From positions 5,578 to 69,577 of the forward strand of contig JAUWMZ010000003.1 of assembly GCA_030612885.1 (NCBI GenBank): DNA of 64,000 bases, written 5' to 3'. The notes under the pieces are model-generated. The model had not been told where the DNA came from. It worked only from the letters and a program-made list of their open reading frames with translations, and did no database searches. This document shows, one piece after another, positions 14,512 through 25,971 of this stretch; position 1 is the stretch's first letter, and every line of letters starts with the position of its first letter. A program made the position numbers and the translations under genes. The DNA is from Candidatus Nealsonbacteria bacterium. Lineage in GTDB: Bacteria > Patescibacteriota > Minisyncoccia > Minisyncoccales > JAGMDC01.

Positions 14512-15737
14512 AACAAATAAAAGAATATTTTTATATCGCCGTAAGAAACATAAGAACCAGACGCTTAAGAAGTTTCTTGACCGTTTTAGGTATTGTTATT
14601 GGCGTGTTTTTAATAATTTCCTTGCTTTCTTTAAGCGAAGGATTGAAAACAACAATTAATCAGCAATTGCAGGCAATGGGCGGGGAAATGGTTATAGTAA
14701 TGCCCGGAGGCGAGGGAGATATTCTTACCAGCATGATGTTTGGCGGCGCAAAGCTAGAAAAACAAGATATTGAAGCTATTAAAAAAGCAGAAGGCGTAGA
14801 TATGGTTTTGGGATATTCTTTTACCGGGACCGTGGCCAGATATAAAGATGAATCAAAACAAATTGCTATGTGCGGCTACGAACCTTGGAAAGAAGGTTTG
14901 GATATTTTGAGTGTTTTTCAGGGTTGGAGTTTAGCGGAAGGAAGATGGCCCAGCAAGAGAAATCAGATTTTAATCGGTCAATATATAGCTAATGAAATTT
15001 TTTCAAAAAAGATAAGGGCAGGTTCGGAGATAGTAATAAAAGGAAAAAAGTTTGAGGTGGCCGGAATATTAAATTCCTTGGGAAGCCAGCAGGATGACAG
15101 CATGGTTTATATGGATATGAAGGTATATCAAGATTTAACCGGAGAAAAACGCGGCACTGCCGCGTATGCGATAGTTAAGCTTGAGGAAGGAGCAGACGAA
15201 AATGCGGTGAAAACAAATATTGAAGCCAGTCTTGAGAAGACAAGAAAAAGAAGGGCTGGAACAGATGTTGCTGATTTTAGTGTAATTACTTCAGAAAAAA
15301 TGGGTGAGCTAGTAGGTACTATTTTAGGCATAATTCAGATTGTTATTATTGGATTTGCCAGTATTGCCATTCTTGTGGGCGGTATTGGAATTACAAACAG
15401 TATGTTCACTTCAGTTAGAGAGAGAACTAAAGAGATTGGCATTATGAAAGCGATTGGAGCTAAAAATTCAGCAATTCTGACGATCTTTTTAATTGAAGCG
15501 GGAATAGTAGGGATTTTGGGAGGCGTAGGCGGGGTATTGCTTGGCAGTATTCTTGCCAAAGCAATTAATTATTATGGCCAGATTAATCCCACCTTTTATT
15601 TCACCACAACCATTTCTCCTTGGATGGTTATTTTTGCTTTAATTTTTTCTTTTTCTATAGGATGTTTAGCGGGATTTCTCCCGGCCAGGGCAGCTGCTAA
15701 ACTTAAACCTGTTGAGGCGTTAAGGAGCTATGAGTAA
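14496..15737 (+). CDS. ABC transporter permease, FtsX/MacB family
   Basis: TM1, a large extracytoplasmic domain, then three C-terminal TM helices with the FtsX-like motif (SVRERTKEIGIMKAIGA). Confidence 0.88.
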   Translation: MEQTIEQIKEYFYIAVRNIRTRRLRSFLTVLGIVIGVFLIISLLSLSEGLKTTINQQLQAMGGEMVIVMPGGEGDILTSMMFGGAKLEKQDIEAIKKAEGVDMVLGYSFTGTVARYKDESKQIAMCGYEPWKEGLDILSVFQGWSLAEGRWPSKRNQILIGQYIANEIFSKKIRAGSEIVIKGKKFEVAGILNSLGSQQDDSMVYMDMKVYQDLTGEKRGTAAYAIVKLEEGADENAVKTNIEASLEKTRKRRAGTDVADFSVITSEKMGELVGTILGIIQIVIIGFASIAILVGGIGITNSMFTSVRERTKEIGIMKAIGAKNSAILTIFLIEAGIVGILGGVGGVLLGSILAKAINYYGQINPTFYFTTTISPWMVIFALIFSFSIGCLAGFLPARAAAKLKPVEALRSYE

Positions 15738-21030: not shown

Positions 21031-22119
21031 ATGAACAAAAAAATATTAGTTAGTTTAAGTGTAATTGCAGTTGTTGCCGCTATTGGCATTGGTGGGACAG
21101 TAGCTTACTTTAGCGACACTGAAACCAGCGAAGCTAATCTTTTCACTGCAGGCACTATAGATATTCATGTTAAGGGTGATAATTTTACTTGGACAGAGGG
21201 AGCACTATTAGATGATATGAAGCCTTGTTATACTGATTACATTAATTTCACGATTTATAATGACGGAAGCGACCCAAATCCAGTTAATGTTTGGAAGCAT
21301 TTAATACTTGGCGTGGAAGAAACTGGCGCAGTTTCTGAACCAGAATGTGATGAGCAAGGTGGAACTTGGACTGGTCCTGTAAGCGGGTGCTTTTGGAATG
21401 GTGCTGTTGATGACAATAATATTTCCAGCATCATAGATTATGATCTTATAGTATGGGTGTATGATTATTGCGATAGATTGATTTGGTGGCAGACCATTTA
21501 TGACAAAGACATAACTGTAGCAGAAATTGCTTGCAAAGAAATCTATTTAGGCATGATTCCGGTTAATGGATATATGGAAGTAGAACAGAGTTACCATATG
21601 CAGGATTATGAATCTACAAACTGGGCGCAAGGCGATATTATGCCTTTCGATATTGAGATTAAAGGTATTCAACTTCGCGGCGAAGCATGGTTGGATTTCA
21701 AACAAGCAGAAAAGAGTCCAGAAGAGTATTGGAAAGTTAAGAATCCAGGAAATCCTGCTGGTACCTTGACTTATATAGTTAAGCACCCAGAGTTTGATTA
21801 TGGATTTACTGCAAGCGGACTTCAAAACAACACAGAATATAGCTTGATTTACTATGCTGATCCATGGCCAGGAAATAACCCTGGTGCTTTAATTGGAACA
21901 GCAACAACTGATGGAACAGGTAATATTGCTATGTCAGATTCTGTTGAATTAAATATGAGTTTTCCAGCCCCTGGCGATCTTAATCATCCAGACGGCGCTA
22001 AGATTTGGTTAGTTCCATCCAGTGATTACGATGATAGCACTAACGAATTAACGGCTTGGAATCCTGATACTTATTTGTTTGAAATCGGTTTGATTTGGTA
22101 TGAAGATACTGATTTATAA
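21031..22119 (+). CDS. TasA/camelysin-like secreted fibre subunit with SipW-type signal peptide, paralogue 1
   Basis: MNKKILVSLSVIAVVAAIGIGGTVAYFSDTETSEANLFTAGTIDI, then DMKPCYTDY, NPVNVWKH and QSYHMQDYESTNWAQGD, plus an extra C-terminal domain of about 150 aa. Confidence 0.8.
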   Translation: MNKKILVSLSVIAVVAAIGIGGTVAYFSDTETSEANLFTAGTIDIHVKGDNFTWTEGALLDDMKPCYTDYINFTIYNDGSDPNPVNVWKHLILGVEETGAVSEPECDEQGGTWTGPVSGCFWNGAVDDNNISSIIDYDLIVWVYDYCDRLIWWQTIYDKDITVAEIACKEIYLGMIPVNGYMEVEQSYHMQDYESTNWAQGDIMPFDIEIKGIQLRGEAWLDFKQAEKSPEEYWKVKNPGNPAGTLTYIVKHPEFDYGFTASGLQNNTEYSLIYYADPWPGNNPGALIGTATTDGTGNIAMSDSVELNMSFPAPGDLNHPDGAKIWLVPSSDYDDSTNELTAWNPDTYLFEIGLIWYEDTDL

Positions 22120-22292: not shown

Positions 22293-23402
22293 ATGAACAA
22301 AAATATAGCTATTAGTTTACTTGTAATTTCTGCCATAGCAGTTGTTGGTGTTGGCGGAACTATTTCCTATTTTAGTGACACTGAAGCAAATGTAGGCAAT
22401 GTAATTGCTGCTGGTATTGTTGATATTAGCATTGCTCCGGGAGGAGACACAGTATCTTTGCCAGCTAAAATTACTGATATGAAGCCCTGCAAAACAGAAT
22501 ATGTAACAATCAATGTTACTAATGAGGAAAACTCTAATCCTGTTGATGTATGGAAGCATATTGATAATGTAGAAACCGAAGAAAATGGAATTACAGAGCC
22601 AGAGCAAAAATGGTATGATGCTAATCCCGGTCAAGCACCCAAGAATGACATTGATACTGTTATAGAATATGATATGACTGTTAATGGAGAGGTTGTCATT
22701 GATGTTAATGACGGTATAACCCTTGATAATATTGAAAGTTATTATATTTATTTGGGTCGTTTAGAGCCATGTGAGACGATGGAAGTTATCCAAAGTTATC
22801 ATATGAAAGGTGATACTGAAAACTGGGCTCAAAGCGATAAAGTAACCTTTGATATGGAATTCTTGGCTCAGCAGATTGGCGCACCAGCACCTACAAACAA
22901 TCTTGATTTTGTGAACATCGGAGATCCAATCAATGAGGCAGGAAAAGACAGAATGATGGCTGGTTGGAGTAATACTGTATGGCCTGGTGGAGCAGGAACT
23001 TGGGGAGGCGGAGATGACGGCACTATCAGAACAGTTTCCGCTGGTGATGATGACACCTATAAGACAACCTATCAGTCAGAGCCACCCGCTACTAATGATG
23101 TAGATTTTGCTACCATTGATGTTGATTTTGGCGCAGGCAGTAATTGGCTTTATATCAGGCATTTAGACGGTCAAGCTGACGGAGCTGGCAATGACGATGC
23201 ATTTAAGGTTTATGTAAATGATGTTGCGATTGCTACATATTTAGACCAATATTCTACTGAAACATGGGTAACCAGCAAATTTGATACTACTGGTTATACT
23301 GGAATTCAAACAGTTAAGATTGAATTACTCGGAGGCCATTGGTCAGGTTATGCCACTTGGGGCCAATTAGGAATTTCTTGGATGAAGACATTACCTTTAT
23401 AA
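22293..23402 (+). CDS. TasA/camelysin-like secreted fibre subunit with SipW-type signal peptide, paralogue 2
   Basis: MNKNIAISLLVISAIAVVGVGGTISYFSDTEANVGNVIAAGIVDI, then DMKPCKTEY, NPVDVWKH and QSYHMKGDTENWAQSD, plus a different C-terminal Gly/Asp/Trp-rich jelly-roll-like domain. Confidence 0.8.
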   Translation: MNKNIAISLLVISAIAVVGVGGTISYFSDTEANVGNVIAAGIVDISIAPGGDTVSLPAKITDMKPCKTEYVTINVTNEENSNPVDVWKHIDNVETEENGITEPEQKWYDANPGQAPKNDIDTVIEYDMTVNGEVVIDVNDGITLDNIESYYIYLGRLEPCETMEVIQSYHMKGDTENWAQSDKVTFDMEFLAQQIGAPAPTNNLDFVNIGDPINEAGKDRMMAGWSNTVWPGGAGTWGGGDDGTIRTVSAGDDDTYKTTYQSEPPATNDVDFATIDVDFGAGSNWLYIRHLDGQADGAGNDDAFKVYVNDVAIATYLDQYSTETWVTSKFDTTGYTGIQTVKIELLGGHWSGYATWGQLGISWMKTLPL

Positions 23403-23495: not shown

Positions 23496-24011
23496 ATGAA
23501 ACCTTTAAAAATAATTTATTACATTTTTATTGCCTTTATTGCTGTGATTGCCATTTTGCTGATTATTTCTGTTTTTCCGATTACAGGGAATTATAAATTT
23601 ATGATTGTCCAGTCAGGTTCAATGGAACCAGCGATTGAGATGGGGAGCGTGGTAATGGTTAAACCGGTTGATAGTTATAAGATTGAAGATGTCATTACTT
23701 TTACAAATCCGAAAAAGCCAGGCGAATCAATTACTCACAGAATTTACGATATGAAAGTCAATGAGGGAGTTCCTGTTTATATCACTAAAGGTGATGCCAA
23801 TAATGCTCCTGATACAAGGGAAATACAAGAGAAAGATATTATTGGAAAAGTTTTGCTGGATATTCCTTATCTCGGTTATGCTGTTGATTTTGCCCAGAAG
23901 CCATTAGGATTTGCTTTGATTATTATTGTTCCAGCCGTGATTATTATTGGCGACGAGATTAGAAAAATCTATAATGAGTTTAAAAAGAAAAAAACAAATG
24001 AAATGGAATAA
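23496..24011 (+). CDS. sipW: type I signal peptidase, SipW-like (S26B, Ser/His type)
   Basis: N-terminal TM helix, SGSMEP (catalytic Ser), ITHRI (His), KGDANNAPD, C-terminal TM helix. Embedded among proteins carrying the AYFSDTE leader. Confidence 0.85.
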   Translation: MKPLKIIYYIFIAFIAVIAILLIISVFPITGNYKFMIVQSGSMEPAIEMGSVVMVKPVDSYKIEDVITFTNPKKPGESITHRIYDMKVNEGVPVYITKGDANNAPDTREIQEKDIIGKVLLDIPYLGYAVDFAQKPLGFALIIIVPAVIIIGDEIRKIYNEFKKKKTNEME

Positions 24012-25971
24012 AAGAATTGTAAAAACCTCTATTTTGAGAATTGTTGTGCTTATGATGATTGTTGGGCTTAACTGGTCCGGGATTTCGGCTATTGGTCAAA
24101 CTTTAGCTTATTTTAATGATACTGAAATTTCTGACAATACAAGCATTACTGTCGGCAGTTTAAATTTTAGTTTAAGTTCAGATAGTGATTTTTCTCCTTT
24201 AGTCACCCCGAGTCAATCTGCCAGTCGCAGTATTGATGTTATAAATGAAGGCAGTTTAGATTTTCAATATCAAGTATCTGCCAGTGATTTTTCCGGTGAT
24301 ACTGAATTTTGCAATGCTTTAGAGCTTATAGCTAATTTAGATGGCGGAGACACAGAATATACAGGAAACTTGACAGATTTTAGTTATAATACTGGAGAAT
24401 TTTTTGATCCAGAAAACTGGCAATTTACAGCCAGTTTGCCTGATGATGTTTCTGACACGCTTGAAAATAAAACCTGCAGTTTTAAATTTATCTTTGAAGG
24501 CGTTCAGCTTGGTGAATGCGCTGGTTTTAGCGATATAGAAGAAATTGAAAACACAATAACTTCTGGAGAGTGGGTAATTAGAGAAGAGATGAAAATTAAC
24601 AAGGTTTATTATGATGTAGATTCAGAGCATGGGATTGAAGGCGATAACGAATGGGTTGAGCTTTATAATCCAACTGACGCACCAATAGATATTTCTAACT
24701 GGAAAATTTGCGATAATACTTCTTGTGATACTATCCCTGTTTTAAATTCTATTTCAGGCAATGGTTTTGCTATAATTACTGCTCAAGATACTACCTGGGA
24801 TTATTGGAATATTCCATCAGGAGTAGAGAAGATTGTTTTGGGAGATGATATTGGTAATGGCTTATCTGATGATGGTGACAGATTGATTTTGAAAAATGTT
24901 AGTGGATACGAAATTGACGCGATGAGTTATGGAACTGATACTTACGTTTTTGACCCTGCTTGCCCTGATGTTGACGAAGGGCATATGCTCGGCAGGGTGC
25001 CGACAGGTTTGGATACTGATTTAGCATCTGACTTTCAAGATTTAGCACCGCCTACCGTATCTGTTTCTTATTACAGCGGCACCTGGTATTGCGGACAAAC
25101 TTATACAATTAATTGGACAGCTGTAAATAATAATGGTGATGATAATGAATTATTGATTGATATTGTTTATATCACTGATAATGATAGAAATGGAATAATT
25201 AGTGATAGTGATAATGTTTATCTTGTGGCTGATGATATAGCAAATTCAGGAAGCTATAATCTTCATATATGCGGTGATTATTGTTATTACGGTTATGTCT
25301 GGGTCAAAGTAATTGCTTATGGTCCGGAGAACTTTATGGTTCAAGCCAGTGATACAGGTCCTCGAGTTTGGGAACCGCCAGCTCCTGAAAATGAATTGTT
25401 TGATATGTCAACTATGTGTCCATTTGAACTTCCTGTAGAAGAGGGGACAGAAGAAGTAGAGGAACCAACTGATGTTGATGAAGAGATATTTGATGATACA
25501 ATTGAAGAGGAAGATACGATAATTGATTTGCCAGCTCTTGACCCTGTTGATACAGTTACCTCTGTTCAAGACGGAGTTAATATTGTCGATGAGGAAGATA
25601 TAGTTGAACCTGATACTGGAGAAGTTTTAAATGAGGAGCCAGTTGAAGAAATTCCAGATGAAGTTATAGAAGATGAAGCTGTTGTTGAGGAAGAAACTAC
25701 TGGAGAGGAAATCACAGAAGAAATTCCAGAAGATGAGCCAGTTGATGAACCGGCCGATGCTGACGCTGATGCTGATGAAGAAGTCCCAGCAGTGACAGAT
25801 GAAGAAATCACAGAAGTTGTTGAGGAGCCAGAACCAATTATTGAATCTGTTGAGGAAGAAATAGTTGAGGAAATAATAGCTGTTATAGAAGAACCAGCCA
25901 CTGTACCGGAGGATATTCCTATTGATGATACTGAAGAAAGCCCTGAAGCAGACAATGATATTCAAGAATAA
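23998..25971 (+). CDS. TasA-like N-domain + lamin-tail domain (LTD) + Ig-like domain + ~200-aa polyacidic tail protein
   Basis: Start is ambiguous (TTG 23947, ATG 23974 or ATG 23998). Leader ...GISAIGQTLAYFNDTEISDNTSITVGSLNF. LTD signature NKVYYDV...GDNEWVELYNPTDAPIDISNWKICDN...GDRLILKN. The C-terminus is almost entirely E/D/V/I/P/T. Confidence 0.75.
   Translation: MKWNKRIVKTSILRIVVLMMIVGLNWSGISAIGQTLAYFNDTEISDNTSITVGSLNFSLSSDSDFSPLVTPSQSASRSIDVINEGSLDFQYQVSASDFSGDTEFCNALELIANLDGGDTEYTGNLTDFSYNTGEFFDPENWQFTASLPDDVSDTLENKTCSFKFIFEGVQLGECAGFSDIEEIENTITSGEWVIREEMKINKVYYDVDSEHGIEGDNEWVELYNPTDAPIDISNWKICDNTSCDTIPVLNSISGNGFAIITAQDTTWDYWNIPSGVEKIVLGDDIGNGLSDDGDRLILKNVSGYEIDAMSYGTDTYVFDPACPDVDEGHMLGRVPTGLDTDLASDFQDLAPPTVSVSYYSGTWYCGQTYTINWTAVNNNGDDNELLIDIVYITDNDRNGIISDSDNVYLVADDIANSGSYNLHICGDYCYYGYVWVKVIAYGPENFMVQASDTGPRVWEPPAPENELFDMSTMCPFELPVEEGTEEVEEPTDVDEEIFDDTIEEEDTIIDLPALDPVDTVTSVQDGVNIVDEEDIVEPDTGEVLNEEPVEEIPDEVIEDEAVVEEETTGEEITEEIPEDEPVDEPADADADADEEVPAVTDEEITEVVEEPEPIIESVEEEIVEEIIAVIEEPATVPEDIPIDDTEESPEADNDIQE

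Follow-up and report, generated by a model that had tools for sequence, protein, structure and literature searches.

Fibres of the TasA superfamily and the locus under study

In TasA fibres each subunit inserts its N-terminal strand (residues 28-38, AFNDIKSKDAT) into the beta-sandwich of the next and so completes it, and TapA has been proposed to start the TasA chain by donating a similar strand (PMC9674648, PMC10151520). For the haloarchaeal twin-arginine translocation (Tat)-fimbriae of Haloarcula hispanica (Tafi) a linear order has been derived from biochemistry and AlphaFold modelling, in which TafC forms the tip, TafE the adapter, TafA the shaft and TafF the anchor (PMC11821415). TafC, present at about one copy per 100 TafA, combines a pilin-like N-domain carrying a donor strand with a laminin-G-like head; the pilin-like N-region of TafF takes the last donor strand and its C-terminal span anchors the fibre, while TafD is the dedicated signal peptidase I of the locus (PMC11821415). 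At AbpX loci there are likewise genes for predicted tip proteins, for minor subunits and anchors, and for a signal peptidase I, and the plan of shaft, foreign-domain tip, membrane anchor and signal peptidase I has been published for TasA-superfamily loci (PMC11821415; bioRxiv 10.64898/2026.01.04.697558). Here we analyse a stretch of 64,000 nucleotides (the window) from an uncultivated, ultra-small Candidatus Nealsonbacteria bacterium (contig JAUWMZ010000003.1 of assembly GCA_030612885.1), in which an open reading frame (ORF) at 23998..25971 encodes a 657-aa protein that joins a TasA-like N-domain to a lamin-tail domain (LTD), an immunoglobulin (Ig)-like domain and a polyacidic tail. We call it the LTD protein and propose, at a probability of roughly 0.5, that it is the tip, that is the first and initiating, subunit of a SipW-processed TasA-superfamily fibre assembled by donor-strand exchange, the product of a cassette conserved in Patescibacteria.

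Patescibacteria, or the Candidate Phyla Radiation (CPR), make up a large share of bacterial diversity, are mostly uncultivated and depend on contact with other cells. To our knowledge, studies of their surface structures have been devoted almost wholly to type IV pili. The cassette described here, conserved across many CPR lineages, would add a second candidate organelle of contact or biofilm formation beside type IV pili. The literature that we searched contains a one-line phyletic mention of TasA-type fibres in CPR (PMC9245690) and, beyond it, no publication on TasA or SipW in these bacteria; nor did we find one on a TasA-LTD fusion, on TasA or SipW together with an LTD, or on polyacidic tails of such subunits.

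A four-part protein

The LTD protein consists, in this order, of a SipW-type leader, a TasA-like N-domain, an LTD followed by an Ig-like domain, and a polyacidic tail, which lie in the window as follows.

23998..25971, + strand: LTD protein, whole ORF including the stop codon, 657 aa
23998..24108, + strand: leader, residues 1-37, with basic N-terminus and hydrophobic segment (TIGR04088)
24109..24588, + strand: predicted donor strand (YFNDTEISDNTSI) and TasA-like beta-sandwich, residues 38-197, with invariant C105 and C160 (hhalign, Foldseek)
24589..24933, + strand: lamin-tail domain, residues 198-312 (PF00932)
25045..25392, + strand: Ig-like beta-sandwich, residues ~350-465, ending in the conserved GPENFM (AlphaFold2, AF2, strands at a predicted local distance difference test score, pLDDT, >90)
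25177..25212, + strand: EF-hand/dockerin-like loop DNDRNGIISDSD, residues 394-405 (pattern match only)
25408..25968, + strand: polyacidic low-complexity tail, residues 471-657, predicted disordered, without C-terminal anchor

These domains (SipW leader, TasA-like segment, LTD, Ig-like segment and polyacidic tail) had been called in the first-pass annotation, which was made from the letters of the DNA, and profile scans, hhalign, Foldseek and AF2 bear the calls out; every peptide quoted there is present in the ORF and in the order given (SRSIDVINEGSLDFQYQV at residues 75-92, NKVYYDV...KICDN at 201-240, GDRLILKN at 293-300, PPTVSVSYYSGTWYCGQTYTINWTA at 351-375 and an acidic string at 549-594). 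An annotation artefact or a frameshift as the source of this architecture was rejected, since the ORF is unbroken, the 657-aa protein is identical in an independent public assembly, where the same gene follows downstream, and homologues have tails too. The identical gene is contained in the run SRR12623520. The ATG overlaps the stop of the preceding gene, sipW (23496..24011), by 14 nt. There is also an alternative in-frame ATG at 23974, 24 nt upstream of the annotated start, with which the leader would gain MSLKRKKQ; the true start codon is thus uncertain, the mature protein being unaffected either way.

The leader matches TIGR04088 over residues 31-55 at 30 bits, against a cut-off of 19 (NCBIfam scan), and its hydrophobic segment is followed by the motif A-[FY]-F-x-D-x-E, as in SipW-dependent substrates. 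Its first residues, MKWNKRIVKTS..., hold no RR motif of the kind that marks a Tat signal and fit the SipW/Sec-type model. TasA itself is cleaved at A27|A28-F-N-D (PMC9674648), and by analogy the LTD protein is predicted to be cut by SipW after ...GQTLA, so that the mature protein would start Y-F-N-D and have F and D as its second and fourth residues. A donor strand of this type is recognised by an aromatic residue at mature position 2 and an acidic one at position 4 (PMC9674648; bioRxiv 10.64898/2026.01.04.697558); both are present, if the cleavage site is placed correctly, in the predicted mature N-terminus Y-F-N-D-T-E (YFNDTEISDNTSITVGSLNFSLSSDSDFSPLVTPSQSASR), which aligns with the N-termini of the TasA-like family encoded by the same cassette. 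The N-terminal consensus sequences are nearly identical, AYFNDxExSxxNxxxAGxLDFSL in the LTD family and AFFSDTETSTGNTFTAGxIDLKVD in the TasA-like family.

The likeness extends beyond the strand, for hhalign joins the N-domain to the co-encoded TasA-like family at 95.8% probability (E=7.5e-9) over 144 columns that include the N-terminal strand, and in Foldseek the TasA fibre 8aur_A is matched with a probability of 1.00 and E=1.6e-4. By remote homology and predicted fold the LTD protein is thus a member of the TasA superfamily, though it falls below the Pfam threshold for TasA. The second domain is a classical LTD: PF00932 matches residues 198-312 at 46.8 bits (gathering score 34.3, E=4.5e-12), the domain is found in 40/40 aligned homologues, and Foldseek aligns the model with lamin A/C (3gef, probability 1.00, TM-score 0.68 normalised to the target), in keeping with an Ig-like beta-sandwich similar to the lamin A/C tail. 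The claim of an LTD signature, first made from a short sequence pattern, accordingly holds above threshold, and the structure search proposed as a check on the predicted model returned both lamin A/C and the TasA fibre. By curated sequence thresholds, the protein qualifies in full both as an LTD protein and as a SipW-type substrate.

The third domain is all-beta over residues ~350-465 in the AF2 model and reaches the Kre9/KNH-like Ig family PF10342 in 4/40 homologues. Within it, the loop DNDRNGIISDSD is present in 36/177 homologues and precisely deleted in others, and its sequence makes it a possible Ca2+ site inside the Ig-like domain. The model, which covers residues 38-480 and was built with 80 homologues in the alignment, has a pLDDT of 92.9 and a predicted TM-score (pTM) of 0.78 and consists of three beta-rich domains; over its first 20 residues the pLDDT drops to 57-73, which fits a mobile N-terminal strand. 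Searched against the PDB with Foldseek, it matches chains of beta-sandwich beads (pilins, macroglobulins), with 3gef and 8aur_A among the single-domain matches. In sequence searches of the PDB the LTD-family profile found nothing significant, and the sole match of the TasA-like family was TasA 5of1, at E=1.1.

A word-indexed search found >200 relatives, and all those with a named source are Patescibacteria (Parcubacteria, Nealsonbacteria, Zambryskibacteria, Pacebacteria), filed under the automatic names 'lamin tail domain-containing protein' or 'TasA family protein'. An exhaustive search of representatives at 50% identity gave 423 clusters at E<=1e-30 and 1874 at E<=1e-10, the latter partly LTD-only matches. 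The combination of domains had at first been described as one not known from the literature; no paper describing it was found, but with 423 clusters it is not rare. The family alignment is solid over residues 1 to ~465, with D41, E43, F57, C105, C160, the NEW.E.YN core and GPENFM invariant, and then breaks down into tails.

The polyacidic tail

The tail of 187 residues contains 80 D/E (43%) and 0 K/R, a number of acidic residues that has a probability of 8e-15 relative to the composition of the remaining protein (P for >=80 D/E in 187 residues), and it is the most acidic segment encoded in the window, with a score of 20.4, the next reaching 7.6. It had been put at about 200 residues, which is right as to its polyacidic character and slightly overstated as to its length (174-187 residues); the proposed check on disorder and charge placed it far on the disordered side of the charge-hydropathy plot, with a net charge of -80. 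Two sources of such a composition were considered and rejected. A tandem-repeat origin is not borne out by Tandem Repeats Finder, which shows just short weak arrays of 2-4 copies in a compositionally biased tail, and general acidity of the genome does not account for it either, the large ORFs of the window averaging 14% D+E and 13% K+R and no other ORF having a comparable acidic segment.

In the family, homologue tails (n=91) have medians of 158 aa, 28% D+E, 1% K+R and a net charge of -43; the charge is <= -20 in 88/91, and the query is the third most acidic. These tails cannot be aligned and are rich in T, P, S, V and I. Because they are unalignable yet acidic throughout the family, selection appears to act on composition (acidic, rich in T/P/S/V/I, with K/R excluded) and not on sequence. 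No C-terminal membrane or sorting anchor was found on any of the 120 homologues retrieved with the LTD protein. A cation- or surface-binding anionic brush is a plausible description of such a tail, judged from its residues, and the near absence of K/R across the family makes it a clean case for the study of charge-only disordered tails on extracellular fibres.

The cassette and its conservation

In the window the genes around the LTD gene are read in one direction, in the order of two TasA-like genes, sipW, the LTD gene, a 12-nt gap, the gene of a 542-aa protein and a terminator-like hairpin, which is the probable end of the operon.

21031..22119, + strand: TasA-like subunit 1, 362 aa, candidate shaft subunit, with SipW-type leader and putative donor strand YFSDTETSEANLF
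22293..23402, + strand: TasA-like subunit 2, 369 aa, candidate second shaft or adapter subunit, with SipW-type leader
23496..24011, + strand: sipW-type (archaeal/endoplasmic reticulum-type) signal peptidase I, 171 aa (TIGR02228, 120.2 bits, cut-off 51.85)
25984..27612, + strand: 542-aa partner protein, candidate membrane anchor and terminal acceptor (hhalign, AF2/Foldseek, synteny)
27634..27656, + strand: terminator-like hairpin, 10-bp stem (consensus scan only)

TasA-like subunit 1 is recognised by PF12389 (34.1 bits, gathering score 22.5) and by TIGR04088 (38.5 bits), and its mature part contains 16.9% D+E; subunit 2 scores 19.5 bits with PF12389, below the gathering score, and 18.6 bits with TIGR04088, just under the cut-off of 19, and aligns with the TasA-like family. 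Against the equivalog model of Bacillus SipW the peptidase of the window scores 114.9 bits, under the cut-off of 190. SipW-type leaders occur in the window only on the two TasA-like proteins and the LTD protein. The secreted proteins of the cassette are all strongly acidic (16-18% D+E, 3-5% K+R, computed pI ~4 or lower), SipW being neutral, and in this they resemble the Ca2+-dependent AbpX clade of the TasA superfamily.

The 542-aa protein, itself undescribed and entered in databases only as 'fibronectin type III domain-containing protein', comprises an ordinary signal peptide, a TasA-like core (~42-162), a Gly-rich linker, a fibronectin type III domain, an acidic P/E linker and C-terminal transmembrane helices; in its family one or more such helices are followed by basic residues. 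Its leader has no TIGR04088 match. The N-domain is related by hhalign to the TasA-like family (92.8%) and to the N-domain of the LTD protein (96.3%), the match starting only past the region that forms the donor strand in the other proteins, and an AF2 model built on database homologues (pLDDT 84) matches the TasA fibre 8aur_A in Foldseek at E=5.5e-5. Judged by sequence and model, then, the cassette encodes four TasA-fold proteins, three of them with a SipW-type leader and a near-identical strand and the fourth membrane-anchored and without the strand.

Synteny was assessed in 35 related loci, taken from a scan of one genome per GTDB species, by searching the ORFs of each locus with the proteins of the window. 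A 542-aa homologue lies directly downstream of the LTD gene in 28/32 loci and sipW directly upstream, within 700 bp, in 27/31 assessable ones, so that the LTD gene is more tightly linked to its partner than to sipW; TasA-like genes, 1-4 in number, stand upstream, and a cassette typically has a single LTD gene. The first-pass annotation had named orthologues lacking the SipW-type leader and unlinked to TasA-like genes as evidence that would refute the assignment, and the outcome favours it: the leader is retained, sipW is the upstream neighbour in the proportion just given, and TasA-like genes adjoin. In one locus of Candidatus Yonathbacteria (L030, 9998-13456) the LTD gene and the 542-aa homologue form a pair with no TasA-like gene or sipW found within 10 kb, which suggests that this pair is the minimal functional unit.

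An additional LTD gene, without the TasA-like N-domain, occurs in locus L002. It belongs to a variant pair, seen in four loci, in which a short SipW-like peptidase (143-157 aa) directly precedes an LTD protein devoid of the TasA-like N-domain, with matches to the query from residue ~195; in L002 the pair sits just upstream of the full cassette.

L002, 5703-7420: variant pair
L026, 9389-11638: variant pair
L028, 3669-6858: variant pair
L034, 3162-6204: variant pair

A proposed tip subunit: assembly and comparison with described systems

In the assembly that we propose, SipW would cut off the leader and expose the N-terminal strand YFNDTEISDNTSI, and this strand would be inserted into one of the TasA-like shaft proteins (genes at 21031 and 22293), in its beta-sandwich; shaft subunits would chain likewise by their donor strands, and the final strand would lodge in the 542-aa protein, which its C-terminal helices would keep in the membrane. 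The LTD, the Ig-like domain and the acidic tail would then end up distally, the first two as a binding head and the tail as a disordered, hydrated polyanion that would bind divalent cations, keep the head extended and non-aggregating, and possibly bridge to anionic or mineral surfaces through Ca2+/Mg2+. The analysis shows the domains themselves, the homology among the four TasA-fold proteins, the missing donor strand of the anchor, the synteny and the acidity of tails throughout the family. Cleavage by SipW, polymerisation and the functions given to the LTD and the tail are what we infer from the domains and their neighbours, and the polarity of the fibre, with the LTD protein at its tip, is drawn by analogy with described fibres. 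We favour the tip because the LTD gene is typically single in a cassette that has 1-4 TasA-like genes, because the donor-strand sequence of the LTD protein is interchangeable with those of the TasA-like proteins, and because the conserved downstream partner resembles a membrane-anchored terminal acceptor. Were this correct, the distal end of a fibre would provide a well-defined structural setting for bacterial lamin-tail domains.

The cassette may be mapped one-to-one onto the Tafi plan, with the LTD protein as tip and initiator, the TasA-like proteins as shaft and adapter, the 542-aa protein as acceptor and anchor, and SipW as processing enzyme. The LTD protein has in common with TafC that a donor strand and a beta-sandwich form its N-terminal part and that a foreign domain lies distally, and the locus around it holds the same four roles: a single tip-type gene, shaft genes, a signal peptidase I, and an anchor with a TasA-like N-region and C-terminal transmembrane helices. 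It differs, as far as the two can be compared by description, in that TafC has a Tat signal and a laminin-G-like head whereas the LTD protein has a Sec/SipW-type leader and an LTD with an Ig-like domain; no polyacidic tail has been reported for TafC. The likeness to TapA (Bacillus subtilis, tapA-sipW-tasA) is that of a minor protein encoded beside sipW, with a TasA-like donor strand and a beta-sandwich body, and the C-terminal part of TapA is largely dispensable. The body of TapA, however, is a complete V-set Ig domain and that of the LTD protein a TasA-like jelly roll, TapA lacks an LTD and a polyacidic tail, and the gene order differs. The TapA family was not among the Pfam and NCBIfam matches of the LTD protein, although whether those libraries contain a TapA model was not checked. 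The LTD protein thus works like TafC or TapA, on the proposed assembly, and is not a member of the family of TafC nor, probably, of that of TapA.

Two further groups bear comparison. The described members of the TasA/camelysin family (PF12389), AbpX included, are single-domain shaft subunits, to which the LTD protein adds ~460 residues (LTD, Ig-like domain and tail). ExeM, an extracellular nuclease of Shewanella, is like the LTD protein a secreted or envelope-associated protein with PF00932; in LTD proteins of the ExeM type the LTD is fused to hydrolases and is partly dispensable for the nuclease activity of ExeM (PMC6085458), whereas here it is fused to a fibre-subunit domain and there is no enzyme domain. 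The locus is therefore best classed as a TasA-superfamily donor-strand fibre locus with a lineage-specific tip, the architecture of which follows an existing paradigm.

Points against the tip and alternative readings

Several observations weigh against the tip. More than 60 residues, mostly K/R-rich, precede the FxDxE leader motif in 55/177 homologues, and long N-terminal extensions of this kind are unusual for a leader that is merely cleaved off; in 13/177 homologues, though not in the query, a conserved cytoplasmic motif [YF]D[IV][IM]PP (YDIIPP) stands before the hydrophobic segment. Membership of the TasA superfamily is remote, PF12389 (Peptidase_M73) reaching 15.1 bits, below its gathering score of 22.5, over residues 30-90 only; in Foldseek the multi-domain nature of the model keeps the TM-score to TasA down to 0.36 (normalised to the target). 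The N-domain may itself be able to take up a donor strand, in which case the protein could be built into the chain. The function of bacterial LTDs has yet to be settled (PMC6085458), and cation binding by the tail is read from composition alone. Across the family, PF12389 is found at E<=0.01 in 8/40 homologues. Carriers of the YDIIPP motif include P0010, P0024, P0032, P0057, P0069, P0082 and P0083.

The alternative that survives best, though we consider it unlikely, is a subunit incorporated in the chain or decorating it: the LTD protein would both donate and accept a strand, be repeated along the fibre or polymerise on its own, and so form a bottle-brush of heads and tails. The first-pass annotation had spoken of a tip or decorating subunit, a wording consistent with the evidence, of which gene numbers, donor strand and anchor-like partner favour the tip, the decorating form being retained only as a rival. 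For a place in the chain one may cite that the N-domain forms a complete TasA-like sandwich and is homologous to the shaft subunits, that the LTD protein may be the sole polymerisable unit in L030, where no TasA-like gene lies nearby, and that the shaft proteins are very acidic as well, which would make an anionic fibre a general theme. Against such incorporation, a cassette typically contains one LTD gene beside 1-4 TasA-like ones, and in the closest described systems the subunit with a foreign domain is terminal and sub-stoichiometric, as in the ratio of TafC to TafA (PMC11821415); moreover, ~460 extra residues per subunit would probably hinder close packing.

Rather less probable still is a two-part surface adhesin, in which the LTD protein would be held on the cell by a strand locked into the 542-aa protein, or by an uncleaved signal anchor, while the product of the TasA-like genes nearby would be a structure apart. 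In favour of this, the genes of the LTD protein and its 542-aa partner are the most conserved pair of the cassette and stand alone in L030, and the long cytoplasmic N-extensions, some with YDIIPP, suggest a role of the N-terminus before or instead of cleavage. Yet the leader passes the model for SipW substrates, with sipW directly upstream in most loci, and the donor-strand consensus equals that of the co-encoded TasA-like proteins, which points to a shared assembly line.

We regard as quite improbable a nucleator or chaperone of the TapA kind that would start polymerisation and have no part in adhesion, its tail serving to keep the protein soluble and unaggregated, or as a mucin-like spacer that carries glycans, and not to bind cations or ligands. 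It is true that TapA donates its N-terminus and is mostly dispensable otherwise (PMC9674648, PMC10151520), and that homologue tails, rich in T, S and P, conserve composition but not sequence, a pattern typically seen where a tail acts entropically or as a solubiliser. Against this, conservation is strong along the ~270 residues of the LTD and the Ig-like domain, many of them invariant, which goes beyond the needs of a nucleator, and the near-absolute exclusion of K/R from tails throughout the family points to selection on charge itself.

A bolder extension of the tip assignment, to which we give little credence, is that the cassette specifies an undescribed, Patescibacteria-wide organelle, a SipW-processed, membrane-anchored donor-strand fibre with an LTD and a disordered polyanionic tail combined at its tip; the tail would make contact with the host envelope or with mineral surfaces by bridging through cations (Ca2+/Mg2+) or by stripping them. 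If true, a cation-bridging tip would be a principle of adhesion not described for any pilus tip.

Neighbouring features of the window

Beyond the hairpin, a 170-aa ORF at 27822..28334 on the + strand encodes a signal peptide and a C-terminal IPTL/VPxxxP-CTERM-like tail (TIGR04174, 22.5 bits, cut-off 20.5). It has a promoter-like site of its own at 27758-27787, and in L002 the cassette has a homologue (14691-15734) on its downstream side; exosortase/archaeosortase-type sorting signals would be out of the ordinary in a CPR genome. Further downstream, a direct repeat of 212 nt with 84% identity (30229-30440 and 30923-31134) is made up of the 5' portions of two type IV pilin-like genes that stand in tandem, each with an N_methyl motif at 36 bits, and the organism therefore encodes pilins of the type IV pilus type besides the TasA-like cassette.

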